IMG/VR virus record: IMGVR_UViG_3300034196_000067
Span: 1-44,795 of that record
Source: a virus
DNA: 44,795 bases
Reading direction: 5' to 3' (one strand)
Numbering within the stretch: the first letter of the stretch is position 1; the number at the start of each line of letters is the position of its first letter. Positions 1-29,979 of this stretch are shown piece by piece. A program made the position numbers and the translations under genes. The notes below the pieces were generated by a model. The model searched no databases. It saw only the letters and a program-made list of their open reading frames with translations, and had not been told where the DNA came from.

Positions 1-337
1 CCAGAGGGGTTCCGAAACGAACCGTATACGATCCGGTGATGGAGAACGTACCTGCTGTCAGGTTGACACGACACTTCCCTGTCCAGAAGTTCGGTACAGC
101 CTCGATCGCTGCCTGGAAGGTCCTCTTCGGTAGGGTTTGGGTTCCAGGCCAAGAGTCATTCCCGTTGACGGGATCGGCGTAGACGCCAACGTCTCCTTGG
201 TAGACCTTGAAGTCGGGAGCTAGGAGCGGGACGAGAGAGTTACCGGACTGATCCACCGCGCTGCTTTTGATGACCTGTGCTAGCACCAGGCTAGGAAGCA
301 GCGACCCTAGAAACAGGAGTCTCTTGGATGAGATCAT
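1..337 (-). CDS. Secreted right-handed beta-helix protein, paralog of the next gene (N-terminal part only; gene continues beyond window start)
   Basis: Reverse-strand ATG at 335-337 overlaps the stop of the upstream gene (ATGA) with GGAGG 13 nt upstream. Translation MISSKRLLFLGSLLPSLVLAQV... has an n-region/h-region/AQV Sec signal-peptide pattern. It then aligns with the 334..1779 product (APDF..Y.DP.NG.DS.PGTQ....GKCR..L.AG). This reverse frame is not in the supplied ORF track because it is truncated. Confidence 0.5.
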   Translation of the reverse strand, partial: MISSKRLLFLGSLLPSLVLAQVIKSSAVDQSGNSLVPLLAPDFKVYQGDVGVYADPVNGNDSWPGTQTLPKRTFQAAIEAVPNFWTGKCRVNLTAGTFSITGSYTVRFGTPL

Positions 338-1779
338 TTGGTAGCAAAGCCTCCAACGGCGTCTGTGATCGGGGTGCCGTTCCACACGTTTGCGTGAGTG
401 CCGACGGTTGTGCCTACCAGGATCTCTCCGGTAGCCCCTGTGACGGTGGTCGTGTTGGCAACAGATTTCGAGATACCAGAACCACGAAGGACTGCGATCC
501 CAGCCCCACCATTTCCTGTACCAACGATACCGCCTTGATCAGACAAAACGGACCTGTCTTCGAGATCGATCCCGTGGCCTGCGTTGTTACTGAGATCCAA
601 ATCCATCATTTTCTCGCAAACGGATCCAAGCTGGATTCTTAGCCCAAAGGTCGAAGAGGAGTAGATACGACCCTTGAGGCCGCTTACCCCTACATGTCTA
701 AAGTCAGAAGTCGGACCGATGTCGATATAGCAACCTTTGGCATCGACAGCGTACATAGAAACGAAAGCTCCTGGACCTAGAAGACGAAGACCGAGACCTC
801 CTGGTCCGCGGAAGAGGAAATACCCAGAAATCATGACGCCGGGACCGGCCGTTTCCACTCCCCAGGGCCTGTTTGCCGAGGAGTGGATGTATACACCAGA
901 TCCACTTACAGCGGCATTTACAAACAGATCATCATCAACCAGTAGCGCCTGCACACCAGCGTTGAATTGGGAGTACGAACTAAACATCAGTGTTCCGTTG
1001 GTCGTGAGATCCCATTCCGACAGCAAGGAGTACATCACGGTGCTGGTGGCTACATTCATGTAGCCACCAGACATGACGAACTTCACGCCATACGAGGCCC
1101 AAGAAAGCCCTGTCAGAATGAGACTCGACGAGATCGTAATCGTAGCGGAGGGCTTCTCTAGTACGAAGTGATCCCCTACAGCCGGTCTTTTGGAGGCCCC
1201 TCCATCAGGAGTCAGCCACTCAAACTGACCTCCGACCGTGTTGCCACGCACCAGTCTTGTGTACCCGGCTGCTGTGCCGGTCGTCATACGCAGATAGTAG
1301 CCAACGTACTGATCAACCGTAGGTGTGAGGGTAGAGTCCGTGATCTGGTATACGTAGTTGGTCGTGGTGGCGCCGACGGAGGACACTGTCCTCGTCCCCA
1401 AACCAGAGTCAGTCAGGGCAGGTCCAACAAGGACGCAGGCTCCTGCCTTTGTTCCGACTGAAGTCCCGGCGCGCATCGTAAGCGCGGTCACGGCGTAGGA
1501 ACCAGCGGCCAGCATGATACGACACTTACCTGTGTAGGTTACAGGAAGTAGAGCTGCCGCAGCACTCAAAGTTTGTACAGGAGAACCTTGAGTCCCTGGG
1601 TTGCTGTCCAGGCCGTTCGTCGGATCAACATAGACGTACACATTACGTTGAGTCGGTCGAAAGTCAGGGGCGGAGATGACTACCGAAGACTCTCCGGAAG
1701 GGCTGATCGCCGAGGGAGAGTACACCTGAGCCTGCGTAAAGAGAGGGATCAGGGCAGTCAGGAGCAGAGTCTTACGCAT
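334..1779 (-). CDS. Secreted beta-helix (pectin-lyase-fold/DUF1565-like) protein, possible polysaccharide depolymerase or receptor-binding protein
   Basis: Track ORF 334..1824. I prefer the start at 1779 (MRKTLLLTALIPLFTQAQV, textbook Sec signal peptide) with AGGAGAAGG SD 3-4 nt upstream. The N-terminal motif VYVYVDPTNGLDSNPGTQGSPVQTL matches the conserved start of DUF1565/right-handed beta-helix proteins. The product is Thr/Gly/Val-rich. Confidence 0.6.
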   Translation of the reverse strand: MRKTLLLTALIPLFTQAQVYSPSAISPSGESSVVISAPDFRPTQRNVYVYVDPTNGLDSNPGTQGSPVQTLSAAAALLPVTYTGKCRIMLAAGSYAVTALTMRAGTSVGTKAGACVLVGPALTDSGLGTRTVSSVGATTTNYVYQITDSTLTPTVDQYVGYYLRMTTGTAAGYTRLVRGNTVGGQFEWLTPDGGASKRPAVGDHFVLEKPSATITISSSLILTGLSWASYGVKFVMSGGYMNVATSTVMYSLLSEWDLTTNGTLMFSSYSQFNAGVQALLVDDDLFVNAAVSGSGVYIHSSANRPWGVETAGPGVMISGYFLFRGPGGLGLRLLGPGAFVSMYAVDAKGCYIDIGPTSDFRHVGVSGLKGRIYSSSTFGLRIQLGSVCEKMMDLDLSNNAGHGIDLEDRSVLSDQGGIVGTGNGGAGIAVLRGSGISKSVANTTTVTGATGEILVGTTVGTHANVWNGTPITDAVGGFATK

Positions 1780-1789
1780 GCGCCTTCTC

Positions 1790-2239
1790 CTACTGGGAAG
1801 TAGACTGCCTGGAGTATGTACCAAGGAGCCGAACCGTCACTCCCCCGCTGCTGACGGTGATCCCGTTAGACACTCCCATCACGCGACCTCTTGGAGGAAC
1901 GCTGTAGCTGTCAGAGACGCAGATGGTTTTTCCGGCACAGCGGGATGGGATGGAGAAGGATTGAGAGCCTTGGAACCACTTCAAGCTGGAGTCGTAGAAG
2001 TAGATATCGATCTGTCCTGCACCAGATAGAGTCTGACCGGTGTCAGAAGTCACGATAATGAAGAACGAGAGGAGGTTTGCCGCATCCAGCCCGGCAGTAG
2101 CACTGGTAACGCTCGTGGGAGCAGTGCCTGTGAGCGCGGTGTCTATGCTGGTCCAGTCTCTCTTCCCAAAGTCATCGGGAGAGCCTCCGACGAAGGCAAG
2201 GAGGAAGATCGCAGCGATCGAGATGAAGAGCTTCTTCAT
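1790..2239 (-). CDS. Small secreted protein (Sec signal peptide), function unknown
   Basis: MKKLFISIAAIFLLAFVGGSP signal-peptide-like N-terminus. AAGGAG SD upstream of ATG at 2237-2239. 10-nt gap to the next gene. Confidence 0.5.
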   Translation of the reverse strand: MKKLFISIAAIFLLAFVGGSPDDFGKRDWTSIDTALTGTAPTSVTSATAGLDAANLLSFFIIVTSDTGQTLSGAGQIDIYFYDSSLKWFQGSQSFSIPSRCAGKTICVSDSYSVPPRGRVMGVSNGITVSSGGVTVRLLGTYSRQSTSQ

Positions 2240-2243
2240 GGCT

Positions 2244-2372
2244 CTACTCCTTGTAGAGAAGAGTGAACTTGCTGCTGCTGGTGTCGAAGACGAGAGAGAC
2301 GAAGACGACGGAGTGCGCGTTGAGAAACGTGACAGCTTCCGTCATGGTCCGGAAGTACTGGGTCTTATACAT
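2244..2372 (-). CDS. Possible small hydrophobic peptide (42 aa)
   Basis: ATG at 2370-2372 is preceded by a near-perfect SD GAAGGAGGAAGC. Product MYKTQYFRTMTEAVTFLNAHSVVFVSLVFDTSSSKFTLLYKE has one hydrophobic stretch. It overlaps the 3' end of 2365..2847 by 8 nt. Speculative. Confidence 0.25.
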   Translation of the reverse strand: MYKTQYFRTMTEAVTFLNAHSVVFVSLVFDTSSSKFTLLYKE

Positions 2373-2847
2373 GCTTCCTCCTTCGGAAGACGTTCTTGAC
2401 GGCCCTGGCTGGTCCGGTGAAGACACCCTTCCCAAACTCTTCCCCTGCCGCGCGGGCAGCAGGCCTGGTCGCCTTCTCCATCTCTCGTGAGATGGTCTTC
2501 TTGAGCATTCTCGTGCTGCTGGGGACGACGGATCCCACTGTGGCGGCCTGGAGTAGGGAGGGTAGGTATTCCTTCTCGATCCGCTTGTTCCGGAGCTTCT
2601 TCGACTCTTCAGGCGTGAGCCGGGCACGCTCGTCAGAAAGGCGCTCGTGCTTCTCTTTCTTCACAGAGCTGCTGAGGCTTGCGCCAGCACCTGCGGCTCC
2701 AAAGAGGGCCGACTTGGGAGCCTTCTCCAGAGCCTTCTTGCCTGCCTTCATGGCGCGGACCTTGAGACGAGAGACTGGGGTGAAGGTCTTAGCGATCTTC
2801 TCCAGTTCATCGAACAGACCGTCGACCAGTTGAGTCTGCATCACCAT
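2365..2847 (-). CDS. Basic Gly/Ala/Lys-rich protein with N-terminal GLFDELEKIA motif (member of the 'FDEL-KI' family; candidate packaged/internal protein)
   Basis: MVMQTQLVDGLFDELEKIAKTF... shares the N-terminal motif with 18308..19207, 34029..34760, 35680..36207 and 36216..36560. Start overlaps the stop of the upstream gene. The antisense track ORF 2396..2833 is rejected. Confidence 0.55.
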   Translation of the reverse strand: MVMQTQLVDGLFDELEKIAKTFTPVSRLKVRAMKAGKKALEKAPKSALFGAAGAGASLSSSVKKEKHERLSDERARLTPEESKKLRNKRIEKEYLPSLLQAATVGSVVPSSTRMLKKTISREMEKATRPAARAAGEEFGKGVFTGPARAVKNVFRRRKHV

Positions 2848-3404
2848 TCACCGTAGAAGTTGTTCACGAAGCGGTACTCAGAATGGATGCCGCCTCCCCA
2901 AGCACTCTCGATGTTGTAGGCCACCTTGAGGCGCTGCTTCTTCTCCTCGTAGGTGTTTCGAAAGAGCTGGATCCAGCTCTGGATGAAGGGAGTCTTGTCG
3001 TTGATGCCGACCTGAATCCCTCCATCCGAGAACTGAAGATGGTTGCGTGTCTGAAGCAGACCTACTGATTCGAGCAGGCAGATGACTGTGGCCCGCACTA
3101 GAAGATGGCGCGATGGGAAGTTCCCGATGGTGTGTCTCGTGAAAGGAGGAGTGGTGTTCCAGTCATCGAGAGCATCGAGGATGGCCCAGACGATCTGTCG
3201 GTTCGAGCTCTCTTCACCCGCGATGAGCCGGTTCAGCTCTGCGTAGTCGCGGGTGAAGAGACGAACCTGGTTCACGAAGTTGTTGAGCTCCAACTCCGCA
3301 TCTGGAACCTGTGCTTTCTCGATGGGCGTGAGAGAAGGAGTGGGAAGCCTGTCACCGGCACCCATGTACCCCGCACCGCTTGGGAGCTTCTCATAGTCGT
3401 CCAT
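2841..3404 (-). CDS. Hypothetical protein (187 aa)
   Basis: Long minus-strand ORF in an operon-like run, translationally coupled to the downstream gene. No recognisable motifs. Confidence 0.45.
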   Translation of the reverse strand: MDDYEKLPSGAGYMGAGDRLPTPSLTPIEKAQVPDAELELNNFVNQVRLFTRDYAELNRLIAGEESSNRQIVWAILDALDDWNTTPPFTRHTIGNFPSRHLLVRATVICLLESVGLLQTRNHLQFSDGGIQVGINDKTPFIQSWIQLFRNTYEEKKQRLKVAYNIESAWGGGIHSEYRFVNNFYGEW

Positions 3405-4133: not shown

Positions 4134-4367
4134 TCACACCTTCTGCTGGACTTCCGTCGCGGTCTTCTGGACGCCCTTGAGGACCTTGTCGATCTCCCAG
4201 GCGGCGACGAAGAAGTAGACCGCCACTCCCACGGCCAACGCGAGGGCGGCCTTCACGATGGTGGAGGAGAGGATGAGCGTGAGCAACATCGGGACGAAGG
4301 TGAGGACGAGGTAGACCACAACCGCAGACACGGCTGCGGCGATGAGCTTCTTGAGATTCGGGGACAT
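4134..4367 (-). CDS. Small membrane protein with two predicted TM helices (77 aa); holin-like topology but function unproven
   Basis: MSPNLKKLIAAAVSAVVVYLVLTFVPMLLTLILSSTIVKAALALAVGVAVYFFVAAWEIDK. GGAGGT SD upstream of ATG at 4367. Confidence 0.5.
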   Translation of the reverse strand: MSPNLKKLIAAAVSAVVVYLVLTFVPMLLTLILSSTIVKAALALAVGVAVYFFVAAWEIDKVLKGVQKTATEVQQKV

Positions 4368-4435: not shown

Positions 4436-4486
4436 GGAAAAGACAACCTGAAAGAAGAACGGCCTGGTCAAAGAAGACCAGGCCGT
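4436..4486 (-). terminator. Rho-independent terminator downstream of the capsid gene
   Basis: 11-bp stem ACGGCCTGGTC/GACCAGGCCGT (4459..4486) with a 6-nt loop. On the minus strand it is followed by TCTTCTTTCAGGTTGTCTTTTCCC. Confidence 0.6.
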
Positions 4487-4509
4487 CCGCAGGTCCCCGC
4501 TGGGCCAGC

Positions 4510-23667: not shown

Positions 23668-26600
23668 TTAGTAGGCGAACGGCTTCTTGCGAGTGACTTC
23701 CTTCGGAGGAGCCCCGAACTCCTTGCCGTAGGCGATTCCAGGAATGGGGTGAGCGCCGTGGATGTCGCTCTTCCACGCCTGACTGGCCCCTCGCTGAAGG
23801 GTCTGCTTGAGGCGCTGGTAGTTGAGGCGAGCCATCCAGTCGGTAGACTGGTTGGGGATGTTTCCAGAGCCAGGAAGCATGGGCTCGTGTGTGATTGGCT
23901 GCTCGTGCGTCTTGCCTTTGTTGTTGCGGTTGAACTCCTCCACCAAGGAGTGCGGAACTACGTCTCCTGGATCCCACTGAGAGCTGCCAGGGTCCTTGAT
24001 CCGAGTGTAGTTGGTGAGGCTTCGAACCACGAGCTCGATGTTACGTGGCCGGACGTTTTCGTCCTTGTAGAGCTTCCTGTAGAGCTCGTCGACCAGGTGG
24101 CGCTGCACCCCATGCATGTCCTTGGTGATGTGGAGGAGCTCCTTCGGGTGAATCGGAGCCATCTCATGAGACAAGCTCTCGCCTCGACGCACCTCCGCTC
24201 CAACCACAAGAGCAGGGTTGATTTCTCCTTCTCGAATGTGGTGGTCGATCCCGTTGATGGTAACGACGTGGCCACCAAGACCGGGGTCTGGCTTGATGCC
24301 TGTGACGGTTCCTGTGGTCTTGGCAAGAATGGCTGACCCCTTCAAGATCTTCGGCATCTTGAGTAGGTCCTTCAGTCGTTGAATCCTGGAGACGGAACCA
24401 CCTCCACGGCCCGACGCGATACCTCCGGTGTGGAAGGCATCCATGGCGAGCTGAGTCGCGGGCTCGCCCAAAGCTTGTCCAGCGAGGACGCCGATGTTGG
24501 TCCCCACCGGATGGAGCTTCCCATTCTCATTGAGGCCGAAACACTTAGAGCAGACACCTTCTCCGTGCTGGCACTTGAGAGGGGAGCGGACTTGGATCTT
24601 GGCGTCCTTCCCAAGAACCTGACGCAGGCGATCTACGAGAGCAGGAGTGACCTGTTCCCCCGCCTTGAAAGGCCCGTGGTCCTTGGCCAAGAACCGATCG
24701 TAGACGTCGAGATGGTAGGGATCCTTGGGGTCGAGAGGCATCAGGATGCCGTGCTGCGTTCCACAGTCCTCGCTCGTGATGAGCGTCGAGATTGTGGAGT
24801 TGATGATGTCCTTCGTCATCGCGCCAGGCTCTCTCGTACCGCTGGCGCGCTGGAGAGTTCCCTTGCGGGCGCCGTGCTGGGCGAGCCAGTAGTCTCCGAC
24901 GTCGAGCCCCTCTCCGTAGGACCTGGTGATGGGGAAGGGAACCACGCGGCCCGTAGAATCCTGCACAAGCATCGGGGCTGCGATCATCTGTCGAAGCTGC
25001 TCTGGTTTTCCACGCGCACCGGAGTAGACCATGGCGCCGAGGTGGCTACCTTCTTTTGGCAGCCGCACTCTCGCTGCGGCGTCGAGCTTCTCCGTTGCCT
25101 TGGAGAAGATCTCCACCAGCTTCGCCTCCCTCTCCCATGAATGAAGAGACGGGTCGATCTTTGCTGCTTGATGCTGCGCCTCCGCTACGATCTGGTCGCG
25201 CTCAGGCAGAGGAGCAAAGTCCTTCAGACTGAGAGAGAACCCGTGCTTGAAGGACTGCTCAGTACCCAGATCCTTCAGGTTGTTCACCACCTTGTCGAAC
25301 TCTCCAGGATGCTTCTTGGCGAGCTCGGTGACAATGGAGCCCATTGGCTTCTTGGAGATCTCGAACTCGGGGTCGTAAAGCACTTGCCCCCGCATCGCGA
25401 AATCCCGAGGAAGGCGGGATTCGATCCGTAGACGGCCAAGCGTAGTAGGCCGGTTCCCGACTTGTTCGACTCGGACTACATCTGTGTGAGTCAGGAGTCC
25501 TTTGTCGACCAGGTCTGAGAGCTCATCGACGGTCTTCACGGTCTTGCCGGAATCCTTACCCCATTTGGAGATGAGGTGAAGGCCGAGCAGGAACTCCTGG
25601 GAAGGGATGTGCATCGCGCCGTAGGTCGTGGGAGAGAAGAGGTTCCGTGAAGGGAACATCTTCTTCGCCTCTTCCACCGCTTCTTGGGAAATAGGGACGG
25701 TGCCCGCCATCGTATCGCCGTCGAAGTCGGCGTTGAAGCCGCCACAGACCAGCGGGTGGATCTTGATGGCCTTGCCTTCCACCGTCTTGGGGCGGAACGC
25801 TTGAACCGAGAACTTGTGCAGAGCCGGATCTCTTTTGAGAAGAAGGGGTCGATCCTTCATCACCTCGTCGAGAGCCTTCTTGGCATGATCCGACTGTGCC
25901 TTCATCTCGGACATAGCTTGAGAAGGCGTGTATCCGTAGCGCGAGTGCATATGCGCCACGACGAAGGGCTTGTAGAGCTCCATCGCGGCCACACGGGGAA
26001 GCCCGATCTCGTCGATGTGAAGGGAAGGTTCAGGGACGATGGTGGACCGAATTGACAGGTCCTGCTTCCGCTTGACGAGCTTCTCTTGGAAGTACCCCTC
26101 CTTCGGCTGATCTCCACCGATGAGGTCCACAATACCCTTCAGCTCTCGGTTGTCGAAGCTCTCCTTGTCGTAGATGGGTGTGTAGTCTCCGACAGCCTGT
26201 AGAGCCTTCATGCTGTTCCAGAGCTCGCCGCGGAGCTCGTGGACCATCTCATGCCCATACTTCTCCGCAGGCATGACCTTCATCTTCTCATTCACAAGAC
26301 CCACGGTCTTGTAGAGGTCGTTGAGAGAGCTCTTCGCCACATCACCGCGTGCCGTGGGAGTCACTGGACGGAAAGCAGCCGGCAGGACCGGGATGTTTTG
26401 AAGCACGTAGGCCTCGTGCGGCTTCATGTCGAGGTCCTTCAGTGCCAGAAGGTACTTGAGCGTGCGGTTGCTCTGGTCGCGCTTCGAGCCTCTCTTCGTA
26501 GGAAGCTCCTCCCGCAGCTTCTTGATCTCCTCTTCGACGTTGACGCTCTTCAGAGCGTCTGCGATGGCTCGACCCCCCACCTTCCCGTCGAGGGTGCTCT

Positions 26601-29600
26601 GCCCTGACATGATCTTGTCCACTTCCTGGACGGAGATGTCGCCATGCTTGAGGGAGAGAAGAGACGGGATGGGGCCCTTGTTCTGCTTGTCTCCGACAAA
26701 GAGCGGATTCGGCACCGGCTCATGGAGCTTGATGTAGCTCCACTTCTCGCCGCGGGACCCGACGATAGCAGGATCGAACAGACCGCCCTTCTCAGGCTTG
26801 AAACCCTTGGAGGTGAAGAGCAGAGGTTTGCGGATCTCGTTCTTACCGTTGTCAGCGATCTTCAGGACCTCGCGATCCGTCATAGGCACCAGCCGCATCG
26901 AGGTGCCTTCCTTGCGAACATCAACGCCGAGGCCGCGAAGCAGTCCTTCGAATTTGGTGTATGCGAAGGGGATCTTCGGAGGAGGCGGCTCTCGTCCTTC
27001 TTGAATCATCCGCCAGAAGTCGACGCCCTGCATGTCTGCTTTGTAGGTCGTCATCTCCCGAAGGTTGTGACGCGCGTTGTGTCCGAGGAGAGAGTAGAGC
27101 TCAAGGGAGCCGAAACCCTGGCCACCAGAAGCCCCGCCCTTCACTGGCTGCATGTCCTGATCGTATTTGTACGGGCGATCGGAGAGGTCCGAACCTCCTC
27201 CGCGCACTACCAGCTTCTTCTCGACCTGGTGCTTCAGCTTGAGAAGGTGTTGAGGGCCGACGAGGATCTTGCCCAGAGGGCGTCGACGATCAGATGGGTC
27301 GAAGACTTCCTCTTCGTCAGACAAGCCATGCTTCGCAAGCTCGTCCACCACCTGCTTGCGATAGTCGTGTCCTGATCCAGCGAAGTTGTTCACGAAGAAG
27401 GGGGAGCCGGTCTTCTCTGCCACTTTACCGGCAGCAGTCTCCAAGACCTGCCCGATGTTCATACGAGTAGGCACGCCTGATGGGTTCAGGAGCACATCAA
27501 GAGGACGGTCTGTCCCATCCGGCTTCTTCACGAAGGGCATCTCGTGGTCCGGAAGGATCTTGGTGATGATGCCCTTGTTGCCGTGGCGTCCGGAGAGCTT
27601 GTCGCCGATCTCAGCAGCTTCCTCGGTCTTCACGAAGACCTTCACGCTCTTGCCGTTCGGACTCTTCACAACTCGCGTGACGATGCCCGGGTAGTCACTG
27701 TCCCAGGTGAGAGACTTGTCCTTCCATGGCTTGATAGCCTTGTTGCCGAATCTCTCGACCATGATCTGACTCTTCACCTTGTTGGGAGTCAGACACGTAG
27801 CGAGAACCTGCCCGTTCGTTACCCTAGAGCCCTCCTTGATGACGCCATCGTCATCCAACATGGAGAGCTTATCTTTCGAGTGGCTCGTCGCCTTGTGTGA
27901 GGCGTAGGACATCCACTTCTTCTTTGAAGTAACGTCCTCTTCCGGCGCCACATCCATCTTCAGCTTGTGCAAATGCTCGCTGGTGAGCTTCTGAGAAGCC
28001 GACTCAGAGATGACGATACCGTCTTCGAAGTTGTACCCTTTGTAGGGAATGTAGCCGACGTGGAGGTTCGTCCCTAGGGCCAGAGTGCCGTTTCGAGTGA
28101 AGTTCGAGTCGGCCACCACCTGCCCAGCCTTCACCTGGTCCCCGACCTTCACCACCGGCTGGGAGTGCAGCATGGTAGTCGGATCATTCAGCGGGAAATG
28201 GTTGTAGAGCTGAACCTTGTGCTCAGTCTTGCCGTCGTGGACGTGGACCCCGTCCGCAGTGATCTTCGTCACCTTGCCATCCACAGGAGCTCTGTGGGCC
28301 GCGAAACTCGTGCCGATGAGCTTCTCGAAGGAGTGGGTTGGGTTGTCCGACCGCACCAGGCTCTGCACGAGAGGGGCTTCACGGTTCTTCAGCGAGATGG
28401 CCTGTTCCATCTGCTTGTCGGCCATCGAAGCGCGGTTGCCTTGGTCGCAAGGAAGGAAGGGGATGAGGTTCGATGTGTAGCTGAACATCGCCTTCGCCGT
28501 TGGCATGAGGAAGTCTGCCTCATGGTAGGGGCGCCGACTGATGTCCCCACCAGGCAACTTCACCTTCACTTCTCTGGCGATGGGAACGTACTTGCCGTCG
28601 ACCTTCTTCACCTGATCAGGCAGCACCACCATGGCCGTGTGGAACTCGGGAACAGTGACATCCTTGAGCTTCCCGGTCTTGAGATCCACGACGGTGGTGC
28701 TGAGGCTCCGACCCTCCTTGCGAACACCAGAACCGAGGTGGAGCGTGATGCCTGTACGCTCAGACTCTGGGGTATGCATCGGATCGAGGAAGGCGAAGTG
28801 AGAAGGGTTCACCCCCTGCATCTCCTCACCGACCTTCTCGGGGTCCTTGATACCACCGTAGTCCTTGGCGATGACGGTAGTCTTGAAGTTCCCTGAGAGC
28901 ATCTGTACTGGGTTCGTCTGCTCACTGCGTTCGGAGACGTTGCCGCCTTGGGTGAAGAATTCCTTGATGGGACGGTTGAAGAGATCTCCGCCCTGCATGA
29001 TCTCGGAGATGACGTTCTTTCGTCCGATGGAGAGCAGGACCTTGTTCTTCACTCTCTTCTTGAAGTTGTTCTTGTCGAGCTTCTCTGGAATGAAGTCCTC
29101 GACGTGAACGACTTCCTTGAAGATCAGGCTGTCACGATCATCAGGCTCTACCTCGCGCCGCTCCAACTTGAGCAGCTTGTTCGATGCAGCGAGAAGAGCT
29201 CCTCCGGTCACCTTCTCGAACGGGTGCCCGAGTGTGGCTTTGGTGGTATCTGGGAAGAGCTGCGTATCGTCGAAGTAGCGGAAGATGTGCTCCCGCATCT
29301 CTTCCATGGACGGAGCTCGCCCGATGTCTGGCGGGGCGGTCTTCTCCCAGAACTTCCGAAGAGCTCGTTCCTCTGCCTCTGGCTGAGCGACCTTGTTGGC
29401 TTCGAAGACGGCTTTGCCCCAGGACTTCTCCATCTCGGCATCGTCTACTCCCATCACCTTGAGAAGGGGGTATGCTGGGATCTTCGCATCCCCCGACTTG
29501 GTCTTGAAGTTGATGAGACTCTTCTTGCGATCGAGGAGTAGGTCGAAGTTCTTCGACCCGCCCTTGCGCAAGTTGAATTCAGAAACCAGGTCTCCGTTGC

Positions 29601-29979
29601 GCTTCACGCGCGTGTAGATGCCGGACTTGAGGCGAAGAAGGTGGTCGACTTGATACTCACCCCCGTCCACGATGAACGAGTAGCGAGAGGTGAGCTTGGG
29701 GACCCGAGCGAGTTGGATGGTCGACTTGGAGATGGGCTTGCCCGTGATGTTGTCGATCAGCTCCATCTCCGCCCGGATCGGCACACCCCAAGTCTGTTCG
29801 TTGTGCTTGGCTTGGAGCTGCGAAGCGACATCGTTCGGATCGAGAGTATCTTCCGCCCAGATTCTCTTGAGCGACAGAGTTCTCTGACTCGTCTGGATGG
29901 GGAAGATGCTGGAAATCTGCTGGATGACGCCATTGGTGAGGGTCGTCATCTTGTCGGCGGTCTTAGGCTCACCGGCCAC
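23668..29979 (-). CDS. Fused multisubunit-type RNA polymerase, beta-like N-terminal half + beta'-like C-terminal half in one 2103-aa polypeptide
   Basis: Beta motifs: [20 protein letters not shown] (cf. GTFIINGAERV..RSPGVYF), [65 protein letters not shown]. Beta' motifs: [24 protein letters not shown] (clamp N-terminus, Zn cysteines absent), [24 protein letters not shown] (catalytic Mg site), [33 protein letters not shown] (trigger loop/F-helix region). GTG start with GGAG SD. Confidence 0.85.
   Translation of the reverse strand: [2103 protein letters not shown]

Follow-up and report, generated by a model that had tools for sequence, protein, structure and literature searches.

Phage beta-helix depolymerases are usually thought of as virion components acting on the cell from outside. 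We analysed a window of 44,795 nucleotides (positions 1 to 44,795 of the IMG/VR virus record IMGVR_UViG_3300034196_000067) that opens with two beta-helix genes, bh1 and bh2, and a small neighbouring gene, sp149, all three of which encode N-termini that look like cleavable Sec signals. The locus raises the question of whether the infected cell exports these proteins or they are built into phage particles, and whether the genes belong to a phage at all. From the comparisons below we consider it moderately probable that sp149-bh1-bh2 is a mobile cassette of Sec-exported, non-virion proteins that would act on envelope glycans.

Gene organization of the locus

The open reading frames of the initial annotation proved to be real at the positions given there, and all of them lie on the minus strand. 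The full length of bh2 was read from L082 (JGI 3300034159 Ga0370509_0000001), the 209,442-bp source contig of the window.

1790..2239, minus strand: sp149, 149 aa, start MKKLFISIAAIFLLAFVGG; partner gene directly upstream of the beta-helix genes
334..1779, minus strand: bh1, 481 aa, N-terminus MRKTLLLTALIPLFTQAQV; beta-helix protein with a predicted signal peptide
1..337, minus strand: bh2, N-terminal 112 codons, start MISSKRLLFLGSLLPSLVLAQV, running off the left window end; full 493 aa at L082:10738-12219
334..337, minus strand: ATGA shared by the stop codon of bh1 and the start codon of bh2 (the plus strand reads tcat)
2247..2251, minus strand: Shine-Dalgarno sequence of sp149, AGGAG, 7 nt ahead of the ATG
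1787..1791, minus strand: Shine-Dalgarno sequence of bh1, AGGAG, 7 nt ahead of the ATG; overlaps the sp149 stop codon (1790-1792)
2244..2372, minus strand: 42-aa ORF between p160 and sp149 (JGI gene call L082:8703-8831), with AAGGAGG upstream

The ATGA overlap agrees with the proposed translational coupling of bh1 and bh2. Their paralogy was likewise clear, with 45% identity over the N-terminal 108 aa (E 2e-26) and 34% over the full length (505 aligned positions, E 8e-70). The third gene had been described as a downstream gene with a signal peptide; our reading of the sequence supported the signal peptide, but along the direction of transcription sp149 lies upstream of the paralogs. The chosen start codons are supported by the AGGAG-N7-ATG sites, and a Shine-Dalgarno core of at least 4 nt was found at 18 of 24 L082 gene starts against a background of 20%. 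The public gene call of bh1 begins 235 codons too late and so leaves out the signal peptide as well as the helix cap, which is a lesson for annotation. The 42-aa ORF, for which no homolog was found, may be part of the inserted segment, and its status as a gene is uncertain.

Predicted signal peptides

Signals for Sec and signal peptidase I were judged by a positive n-region, an h-region of about 7-15 residues and small residues at -3 and -1. By sequence reading and a heuristic filter (which the sp149 signal peptide passed), sp149, bh1 and bh2 all showed this tripartite layout of n-, h- and c-regions, as the initial annotation had proposed.

2183..2239, minus strand: predicted signal peptide of sp149, residues 1-19, MKKLFISIAAIFLLAFVGG cut before S; n-region MKK, 14-residue h-region, V-G-G at -3..-1
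1729..1779, minus strand: predicted signal peptide of bh1, residues 1-17, MRKTLLLTALIPLFTQA cut before QV; n-region MRK, 11-residue h-region, T-Q-A at -3..-1, Gln at +1
278..337, minus strand: predicted signal peptide of bh2, residues 1-20, MISSKRLLFLGSLLPSLVLA cut before QV; n-region MISSKR, 13-residue h-region, V-L-A at -3..-1, Gln at +1

The n-, h- and c-regions were read as MRK, TLLLTALIPLF and TQA before Q in bh1, as MISSKR, LLFLGSLLPSLVL and (V)LA before Q in bh2, and as MKK, LFISIAAIFLLAFV and GG before S in sp149. None of the three proteins has a lipobox ([LVI][ASTVI][GAS]C) or a Cys close to where the hydrophobic region ends, and the n-regions MRK, MISSKR and MKK hold no Tat motif (S/T-R-R-x-F-L-K). 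In the structure model of bh1, residues 1-20 had a pLDDT below 50 and were disordered, and the confident fold began after them.

A hydrophobic N-terminus in all three proteins would also be expected if these were uncleaved signal anchors that fix the proteins to the inner membrane on its periplasmic side, or releasable anchors of the SAR type linked to lysis timing. We consider this very improbable, since h-regions of only 11-14 residues that contain Pro are too short for a stable membrane helix, and the residues at -3 and -1 are canonically small.

Fold and domains of the beta-helix proteins

The AlphaFold model of bh1, run as a monomer on a 114-sequence alignment, was a right-handed parallel beta-helix of the pectin-lyase-like type, which confirmed the predicted fold and excluded the possibility that no beta-helix is formed. 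An earlier run on a 4-sequence alignment (pLDDT 40.8) was discarded in favour of this one. Two parts of the protein could be set apart from the helix body:

1540..1641, minus strand: cap at the N-terminal end of the beta-helix in bh1, residues about 47-80, VYVYVDPTNGLDSNPGTQGSPVQTLSAAAALLP
1150..1437, minus strand: inserted domain of bh1 between cap and helix body, residues about 115-210, ...ITDSTLTPTVDQYVGYYLRMTTGTAAGYTRLVRGNT...GDHFVLEKP; a separate set of strands in the model

The cap, formed in the model by a strand (47-51) and a helix (71-77), carries the best-conserved columns of the family (G56, D58, T70 and P79). The near-invariant residues of the inserted domain are G119, T154 and N180, joined by G160 and G168, and some other proteins (P0020, P0039 and others) carry this module in 5-9 tandem copies. 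The cap had been called a DUF1565-type start. The motif is there, but weakly: Pfam DUF1565 (PF07602) was reached only by the bh2 fragment (E 0.009), whose 15.8 bits lie under the curated cutoff of 20.3, and neither bh1 nor full-length bh2 matched any Pfam model. In PHROG the 112-aa bh2 fragment weakly matched the tail family phrog_21973 (E 0.026), and bh1 and full-length bh2 matched nothing.

Fold comparison of bh1 returned many tailspike matches, and the BFVD fold search gave only generic beta-helix matches with TM-scores of at most 0.44. Searching PDB sequences with profiles of the family and of sp149 brought no significant match; a weak one to the PL9 rhamnogalacturonan lyase 5olq (E 0.37) fell on positions 102-163 of the A2 profile, which were not mapped onto bh1 residues.

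The fold and its tailspike matches would suit bh1 and bh2 being tailspikes or side fibres, that is, receptor-binding depolymerases on the particle whose hydrophobic N-terminus is an assembly element or an artefact of the gene start. We hold this to be distinctly unlikely. Only about 25-28 residues separate the predicted cleavage site from the helix cap in bh1 and bh2, and a stretch of about 25 residues leaves no room for a virion-anchoring domain; no N-terminal tail or baseplate anchor domain was found. The AGGAG-N7-ATG sites also speak against a misplaced start.

Position of the cassette in its carrier phage

L082 belongs to a myovirus-like phage of roughly 209 kb that codes for its own RNA polymerase. 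The cassette lies in the stretch from its major capsid gene to its tail sheath gene, and beyond bh2 the contig continues with genes conserved in the lineage, such as that for the tail sheath (phrog_279, E 1.6e-16) and a homolog of p305. The placement of the genes at the edge of the structural region was thus an artefact of where the window was cut, and extension of the contig, which had been suggested as a check for a phage/host junction, revealed phage DNA on the bh2 side too. The reading of the region as flanking host DNA or a junction, with the genes as bacterial secreted proteins, could draw on their place at the window edge and on a GC content slightly under that of the neighbouring genes (53-58% in the cassette, 58-63% around it, a small deviation in composition). 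It is already refuted by the gene content of the source contig, and we give it practically no probability. Two scans of 185,579 species genomes pointed the same way, with no close relative except one phage-like contig: the bh1 group gave no match, and the 'TRGGALKKRxYQTY' subfamily matched once, on a phage-like contig in a MAG labelled Myxococcales.

A Bacteroidota host, which the Gln after the signal peptide had brought to mind, was considered and dropped because of the strong Shine-Dalgarno sites, a GC content of 58-60% and the Myxococcales label of the only genome match. No tRNA genes were found in the window, so these gave no help toward assigning a host.

We compared the locus with related phages. 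In the closest relative found, L002 (capsid 79% identical), the p160 homolog is followed directly by the p158 homolog, with about 0.7 kb between the aligned segments compared with about 3.5 kb in L082, where this space holds the cassette. The cassette is therefore present in L082 and missing at the same site in a close relative, as is the case for morons. It was not found in the equivalent interval of 25 related phages, and a crude signal-peptide filter detected no other signal-peptide-like ORF in that variable interval (roughly 100 kb). Among 80 relatives, only L006, L007 and L031 carry a family member near the capsid gene, at a site that differs from that in L082. A search for a sigma-70-type promoter or a flanking terminator around the cassette found none, although the promoter search is limited by the phage having its own RNA polymerase, since phage promoters may differ.

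A location inside the structural operon, between capsid and sheath, counts for the tailspike reading and against export. However, the cassette is missing from the closest relative and from most of the lineage, and neither its presence nor its position is conserved among the tail genes of the relatives.

The wider beta-helix family

Word-indexed homology searches gave at most 5 matches each, and the family was revealed by an exhaustive search of representatives, which recovered 3,678 at E<=1e-3; it has no Pfam model of its own. Closer to home the searches were empty: tblastn of bh1 against GenBank phages gave no match, IMG/VR scans with bh1 and with the sp149 alignment found nothing, and a JGI metagenome scan with the bh1 group had no match and also missed the source contig itself. 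Alignments A3 and A5 diverged too much to be usable in locus scans.

Among the top 150 members, 59 (about 40%) had a signal-peptide-like N-terminus, 57 a short non-hydrophobic one and 34 a long one. When ten members with long N-termini were scanned, most PHROG tail or tail-fibre matches fell in the N-terminal extension, and the relatives with tail-fibre N-termini carry no signal peptide. Among them is P0001, which is encoded a few genes downstream of Baseplate_J and Tail_P2_I of the baseplate. Such members are a point in favour of a virion role for bh1 and bh2. So is a difference between the nearly identical phages L006 and L031, whose family member shares its N-terminal 105 residues and differs in the helix body, resembling the exchange of a host-range cassette. 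A shared N-terminus with a swapped helix body is the classic pattern of a virion receptor-binding protein.

The members with signal peptides showed two features of their own. Gln was the first polar residue past the hydrophobic core in 40 of 61 and was preceded by A, G or S in 37 of these 40; bh1 and bh2 conform to this. An N-terminal Gln is known in mature signal peptidase I substrates of some bacteria (PMC5837995). Of 61 signal-peptide members, 38 had a Cys-x(3-10)-Cys pair in the N-terminal cap, as did 1 of 91 others (Fisher p 1e-18), the single exception having an internal signal peptide behind an apparently miscalled start. The pair, typical of most signal-peptide members, is not present in bh1 and bh2. 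Disulfides also stabilise VexL, a beta-helix lyase of the periplasm (PMC6003464).

The strong preference for Gln makes sense only if Gln becomes the new N-terminus, which speaks against uncleaved anchors. Both patterns also fit poorly with tailspikes, since the virions of tailed phages assemble in the cytoplasm.

A recurring gene pair

Phage or phage-like contigs (L082, L083, L084, L086, L087, L090, L091 and L092) offered eight sites at which a signal-peptide beta-helix gene directly follows a small partner gene, a phage backbone being shown for five. The partner carries its own signal peptide in six of the eight; in L090 it is cut by the contig end, and in L091 it has none as called. The partner in L087 (Logan SRR27370456_87107), a 149-aa protein at L087:7544-7993 whose gene likewise stands just ahead of a signal-peptide beta-helix gene, is 38% identical to sp149 over the full length (E 1e-23), and the two share two Cys residues (CAGKT.C). 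Pfam and PHROG gave no match for sp149 and nothing usable for the other partners or the third secreted proteins. The downstream 204/207-aa protein of L087 and L092 belongs to phrog_3000, a family of unknown function, and a spanin-like match in L092 is weak (E 0.006).

The surroundings of the pair differ from place to place. In L083, a 77.8-kb contig, it lies among helicase and DNA polymerase genes, and in L084 and L086 it adjoins an endolysin gene (PHROG-supported in L084, endolysin-like by sequence reading only in L086) and a membrane protein gene. L087 is a Mu-like phage that has, besides the pair, a separate bona fide tail fibre of its own (phrog matches). Gene pairs among replication genes or beside an endolysin, and a carrier with its own fibre, all weigh against the tailspike reading. 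The neighbouring endolysin and membrane-protein genes, with the weak spanin-like match in L092, are what SAR-type anchors tied to lysis could appeal to. A dedicated component of a lysis cassette was kept only as a possibility, the endolysin adjacency being PHROG-supported in L084 alone. Taken with the family patterns, this comparative evidence points to real export over a virion role.

Possible binding or cleavage of glycans

We looked for catalytic residues in the beta-helix. Conserved Asp and Glu residues occur in the cap and the inserted domain, but in the helix body of close relatives R324 is the only conserved charged residue, and no conserved acidic catalytic residues were found there, either across the family or in bh1 and its closest relatives. 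A bh protein may therefore bind glycans without cutting them. It could be an exported but non-enzymatic beta-helix that binds or shields the envelope, for example by masking or sequestering a receptor against other phages, possibly with its partner; conservation of the partner gene does suggest a two-protein complex.

We rate this non-enzymatic role as rather unlikely. In Pfam, family members match models of enzyme type (Beta_helix, Pectinesterase and Pel9A-like; among 66 members, 7 matched Beta_helix, 2 DUF1565 at E<=0.001 and 1 Pel9A-like), and the relatives of tail-fibre type are most simply read as depolymerases. The absence of catalytic conservation at the family level is weak evidence, because the catalytic residues of depolymerases are often conserved within one specificity group only.

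A proposed role for the cassette

In the exported-cassette reading that we favour, a small partner gene (sp149) and a tailspike-type beta-helix gene, tandem-duplicated into bh1 and bh2, would have been inserted into the late structural operon and would be transcribed late alongside the virion genes. The pre-proteins would pass through host Sec and be cut by signal peptidase I, leaving an N-terminal Gln on bh1 and bh2, and the mature proteins would fold in the periplasm or envelope and not be incorporated into virions. There the beta-helix would bind, and probably cleave or modify, a polysaccharide of the envelope, such as capsule, EPS, O-antigen or another glycan of that kind. It may act on polymer crossing the periplasm, or at the surface once freed by lysis. 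A point against this reading is that, before lysis, a protein in the periplasm would have to get at substrates on the far side of the outer membrane. Since bh1 and bh2 are only 34% identical, they probably differ in glycan specificity.

A likely benefit would be destruction of the phage's own receptor on the infected cell, so that superinfecting phages are excluded and fewer progeny are lost on debris; alternatively, the glycan layer could be cleared at release. A role in lysogenic conversion is possible for the Mu-like relative L087; it suggests itself less readily for a phage of 209 kb with an RNA polymerase of its own.

The initial annotation had seen here a different use of the beta-helix fold. 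Its location at an edge or junction fell away, whereas the export-like N-termini stood and were strengthened by the Gln pattern, the Cys pair, the signal peptides of the partners and the fibre-type relatives without a signal. This suggests a second deployment of the fold, in which a secretion signal takes the place of the fibre-anchoring N-terminus and a small partner accompanies the gene. More broadly, and tentatively, a portable export module of two genes (a secreted partner and a Sec-signal beta-helix), which delivers a glycan-active protein to the host envelope from inside the cell, may be present in many uncultured phages. Such a module would destroy receptors or clear capsules separately from the virion and the holin-endolysin-spanin set, and its helix body could be interchanged between virion and exported proteins by an N-terminal swap; we regard this generalization as possible but short of probable.

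If export and glycan activity are true, a large body of phage proteins that runs to thousands of cluster representatives and lacks annotation would gain a function, and phages would remodel or remove envelope glycans from within. This would bear on superinfection exclusion, on progeny release from capsulated or biofilm hosts and on receptor dynamics, and it would offer a pool of naturally soluble, secretion-competent depolymerase-like proteins.

Comparison with known systems

The cap motif of the bh family (Y-V-D-P-x-G-x-D-x-N-x-G-T...P-x-x-T) resembles the start of DUF1565 (PF07602), Beta_helix (PF13229) and Pel9A-like proteins, but the family has a distinctive inserted domain of about 95 residues after the cap. 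Phage tailspike and tail-fibre depolymerases (CBA120 TSP2-4, the P22 and HK620 tailspikes, Klebsiella phage capsule depolymerases and Andhra gp15) have a virion-binding N-terminus, where the bh proteins have a predicted Sec signal. The bh genes also differ from these in being accessory, not core, and in having a partner gene that often bears a signal peptide; their products share only 6-14% sequence identity with solved tailspikes.

Among the exported beta-helix enzymes that bacteria use on glycans are the Vi-antigen lyase VexL (PMC6003464), Pantoea WceF (PMC7949094), the alginate epimerases AlgG and AlgE4, and RbmB, the VPS lyase of Vibrio. These are chromosomal and lie in polysaccharide biosynthesis clusters, whereas the cassette genes are phage-borne, and there is no homology at the sequence level (10-13% identity). 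WceF uses the Tat pathway, in contrast to the Sec-type signals predicted for the cassette proteins. Proteins of Porphyromonas gingivalis phages follow a Q-rule, with Gln after the signal peptide as in bh1 and bh2 (PMC10367356). We did not find such a cassette described in the literature on phage depolymerases with signal peptides, of which our coverage was incomplete.

In the classical examples, morons encode small lipoproteins or outer-membrane proteins, where the cassette has 50-kDa beta-helices. The cassette also differs from them in having no detected promoter or terminator of its own and in being carried by a large phage with its own RNA polymerase and no sign of temperate life. Like lambda lom and bor, T5 llp and the cor genes of phi80 and N15, however, it consists of accessory genes, here for putatively exported proteins, that lie amid structural or lysis genes and are missing in close relatives.

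Results

The cassette comprises three open reading frames, each with a predicted tripartite N-terminal signal:

2239..1790, minus strand: sp149, the small partner gene, 149 aa, first in transcription order; predicted signal MKK, LFISIAAIFLLAFV and GG before S
1779..334, minus strand: bh1, the first beta-helix gene, 481 aa, second in transcription order
1729-1779, minus strand: predicted bh1 signal; MRK, TLLLTALIPLF and TQA before QV
337..1, minus strand: bh2, the second beta-helix gene, first 112 codons in the window, third in transcription order
278-337, minus strand: predicted bh2 signal; MISSKR, LLFLGSLLPSLVL and A before QV

The reading frames are real and, as the initial annotation proposed, the two beta-helix genes are adjacent and translationally coupled, with the bh1 stop overlapping the bh2 start in an ATGA at 334-337. 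AGGAG was read 7 bases ahead of the ATG in both sp149 and bh1. The claimed paralogy also held: bh2 is complete (493 aa) in the source contig L082, and the full-length proteins share 34% identity over 505 aligned positions (E 8e-70), so that they are true paralogs end to end. However, sp149, which had been described as downstream, precedes bh1 and bh2 in the direction of transcription.

Signal peptides were called by our own reading of the sequence and a crude N-terminus filter. The short tripartite N-termini support the Sec-type signal peptides initially predicted on all three genes, and neither a lipobox Cys nor a twin-arginine motif was read in these N-termini. The filter flagged sp149, bh1 and bh2 among the window's real genes. 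Applied to the corresponding variable interval in 25 related phages it gave no matches, so three signal-type genes in a row are no chance pattern. If left uncleaved, the same N-termini would be membrane anchors, which is improbable since the hydrophobic cores, as read, are 11-14 residues and too short for this.

Profile searching recovered a protein of 246 aa (P0003) that is identical to the C-terminal half of bh1 and was traced to L082 (JGI 3300034159 Ga0370509_0000001, 209,442 bp). The public JGI call for bh1 covers the last 246 aa only (window 334-1074, minus strand; L082:10001-10741). It begins 235 codons late, leaves ~700 bases without annotation, and the deposited annotation therefore misses the bh1 signal peptide and helix cap. 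The gene order in L082 is the major capsid protein (phrog_2522); five small genes and then a 42-aa ORF; sp149, bh1 and bh2; genes of 158, 295 and 456 aa; three further genes, among which at least the 305-aa gene is conserved throughout the lineage; and a tail sheath of 1,105 aa (phrog_279, E 1.6e-16). This capsid-to-sheath order puts the cassette among the late structural genes of a large phage of myovirus-like type. The cassette had been placed at the edge of the structural region, but structural genes run on past bh2 to the tail sheath, and extending the contig beyond the window edge revealed late structural module on both sides instead of the suspected phage/host junction. Flanking host DNA is thus refuted as an explanation, the cassette lying inside the structural module of a 209,442-bp phage contig. 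A 2,103-aa ORF (window 23668-29979, minus strand) encodes the beta (Rpb2_6, E 1e-63) and beta' (Rpb1 domains 1-5) parts of a multisubunit RNA polymerase as one fused protein. This puts the phage close to the Caudovirales lineage with RNAP genes described in PMC7481178.

Several further features were observed around the cassette. A strong hairpin resembling a terminator, with a 13-bp stem that includes 9 G-C pairs and a T-rich tail, lies ~20 bases past the major capsid stop (window 4457-4488, minus strand; L082:6587-6618). The 77-aa protein directly 3' of the capsid gene (window 4134-4367, minus strand) has long hydrophobic stretches and weak matches only, including a holin family at E 0.04. 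The 456-aa protein downstream of bh2 (L082:13618-14988) looks fibre-like, with at least four motif repeats (...SSKDLSQVDTDVLAVK.KTDNLPATPA...); it was not detected in L002, the closest relative, and had no PHROG or significant Pfam match. The products of the cassette-flanking genes p160, p158 and p295 (window 2365-2847, minus strand; L082:12237-13597) are rich in Gly/Ala zipper-like stretches, e.g. GAAGAGASL and ALVGGALATGLGAA. Searching the relatives by tblastn recovered homologs of p160 and p158 in L002 only and no homolog of p295.

Comparison with related phages shows the cassette to be inserted. IMG/VR contains 172 relatives of the capsid protein, on contigs up to 210 kb; the closest found is that of L002 (79% identity). 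The aligned segments of the p160 and p158 homologs are ~0.7 kb apart in L002; in L082, ~3.5 kb lies between p160 and p158 and contains the 42-aa ORF, sp149, bh1 and bh2. No sigma-70 promoter or terminator was found flanking the cassette, and its GC is slightly below that of the neighbouring genes. The interval from p187 (window 2841-3404) to p305, both conserved genes, occupies L082:8231-14989, which is window 1-3404 and continues beyond the left edge. It ranges from 1.3 to 7 kb across 26 relatives, and signal-peptide ORFs passed the crude filter within it in L082 only, with 25 related phages compared. The interval looks like a cargo hot-spot within the structural module. The related contigs L006, L007 and L031 carry a beta-helix family member, also with a signal-peptide-like start, at another site, between the p97 and p187 homologs.

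The first bh1 model, from a 4-sequence alignment, was useless (pLDDT 40.8), whereas the model with 114 family members aligned reached pLDDT 89.5 and pTM 0.87, with residues 1-20 below 50. It matched the Vag8 passenger domain, the phage Andhra receptor-binding protein gp15 and AlgE4 epimerase, further RbmB (a Vibrio polysaccharide lyase), the PL9 lyases 5olq and Pel9A and CBA120 tailspike 3, and after these many additional tailspikes and capsule depolymerases. Sequence identity to the matches was 6-16%, and ~270 of the 481 residues aligned to the matched helices. The model and its matches confirm the beta-helix fold predicted initially. A fold of this kind does not by itself tell an enzyme from an adhesin, and an exported protein that binds without catalysis is a possible, minority explanation. 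Residues ~115-210 of bh1 form a separate inserted domain, whose motif occurs as tandem repeats in other proteins. This ~95-residue domain (window 1150-1437, minus strand; motif TDS..W/Y..N/D.Y.G..[LV]R..TG...G..R.I..NT...) is present in 5-9 tandem copies within the long proteins P0004, P0005, P0020, P0039, P0042, P0047, P0057 and P0067. The domain seems to be a repeat module not described before, and P0004 and P0005, the repeat-bearing proteins with a precomputed Pfam listing, have no domain there.

No Pfam or PHROG match was found for bh1 and full-length bh2, and the 112-codon bh2 fragment gave sub-threshold matches only. When 1.84 billion cluster representatives were searched exhaustively with a profile, 3,678 family proteins were recovered at E<=1e-3, of which 1,272 reached E<=1e-10. 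A Pfam scan of 66 members matched Beta_helix in 7, Pectinesterase in 3, DUF1565 in 2 and Pel9A-like in 1; the family is thus a remote, uncurated branch of the pectin-lyase-like superfamily. The N-termini of the top 150 members were signal-peptide-like in 59, short and non-hydrophobic in 57, and long extensions in 34. When ten long-N members were compared with PHROGs, the matches to tail or tail-fibre families fell mostly within the extension, and the gene of one such member, P0001, follows the baseplate genes Baseplate_J and Tail_P2_I at a distance of a few genes. Close relatives of bh1 (28-37% identity) include forms with and without a signal peptide, so the N-terminal module is exchanged on a common helix body. 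The family members of the nearly identical phages L006 and L031 (L006:5380-7035; L031:12325-14022) present, from their sequences, a clean module swap, in which the first 105 residues (signal peptide and GLVNTGSQTLGGLKTF segment) are the same and the helix bodies differ. A constant N-terminus with a swapped body is the classic receptor-binding protein pattern, and this pair is the best argument that the cassette encodes virion tailspikes after all. However, an exported enzyme tracking host glycan diversity would leave an identical swap pattern, and we consider a virion tailspike unlikely.

Two N-terminal signatures suggest export. Of the 61 signal-peptide members, 40 have Gln as the first polar residue behind the hydrophobic core, following A, G or S in 37 of these 40, and bh1 (TQA before Q) and bh2 (VLA before Q) match this pattern. 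Such a preference makes sense only if Gln becomes the new N-terminus, and it agrees with the "Q-rule" for signal peptidase I substrates in Bacteroidetes (mean 71%; PMC5837995), also noted in P. gingivalis phage proteins (PMC10367356). Within the N-terminal cap, 38/61 signal-peptide members versus 1/91 others have a Cys-x(3-10)-Cys pair (Fisher p 1e-18), the lone exception having an internal signal peptide behind an apparently miscalled start. Disulfide formation takes place outside the cytoplasm. Such bonds also stabilise VexL, a periplasmic beta-helix lyase (PMC6003464). Neither bh1 nor bh2 has the Cys pair, so the argument is weaker for these two in particular.

The Gln pattern by itself points to a Bacteroidota host. 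However, a Shine-Dalgarno core precedes 18 of 24 L082 gene starts (background 20%), Bacteroidota rarely use such sites, the phage GC is 58-60%, and the single match among 185,579 species genomes scanned was a phage-like contig binned with a Myxococcales MAG. Together these disfavour a Bacteroidota host. The Q-rule-type Gln of bh1 and bh2 conflicts with the strong Shine-Dalgarno sites and the GC. No tRNA genes were found in the window.

The gene pair recurs, with a small partner gene immediately upstream of a signal-peptide beta-helix gene in eight places: the phage of the window (L082); L087, a Mu-like phage that encodes a tail fibre of its own; L083, a contig of 77.8 kb, where the pair is surrounded by genes for SNF2 helicase, DUF3987 and DNA polymerase A; L084, adjoining a PHROG-supported endolysin and a membrane protein; L086, adjoining a membrane protein and a gene that reads as endolysin-like; and L090, L091 and L092. 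Six of the eight partners carry a signal peptide themselves; that of L090 is cut by the contig end, and that of L091 lacks one as called. A third signal-peptide protein follows downstream in L084 and L091. Along its entire length, the sp149 product shares 38% identity with the L087 partner (E 1e-23). The partners of L083, L084, L091 and L092 are mutually homologous (E 1.6e-5 to 2e-21), the L086 partner resembles that of L084 by eye, and a weak link (E 0.009) joins the sp149/L087 group to the L083-type group. This conserved neighbour counts as evidence that the signal-peptide forms are probably truly exported.

Discussion

The most likely mechanism, which we hold with moderate confidence, is that the cassette proteins are exported and act on envelope polysaccharide. 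The cassette would be transcribed late together with the virion genes, and its products would undergo Sec translocation and then signal peptidase I cleavage. The mature proteins would fold in the envelope and bind polysaccharide there, probably cleaving or modifying it, either as polymer in transit, in the manner of VexL or AlgG, or, after release, at the surface. A plausible benefit would be ridding the infected cell of the receptor that the phage itself uses; alternatively, the capsule or EPS layer could be cleared at lysis. The tandem, 34%-identical paralogs may provide two glycan specificities. This hypothesis is well defined and testable, and spans a large unannotated protein family.

In the literature searched, the coverage of which was incomplete, we came across no account of such a phage cassette. 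Virion tailspike depolymerases are alike in fold and wider family, but differ in N-terminus and deployment. The bacterial exported beta-helix glycan enzymes VexL, WceF, AlgG and RbmB follow the same logic, but are chromosomal and not sequence-homologous. The signal-peptide morons of phage late regions share the genomic behaviour of the cassette, while the proteins themselves differ.
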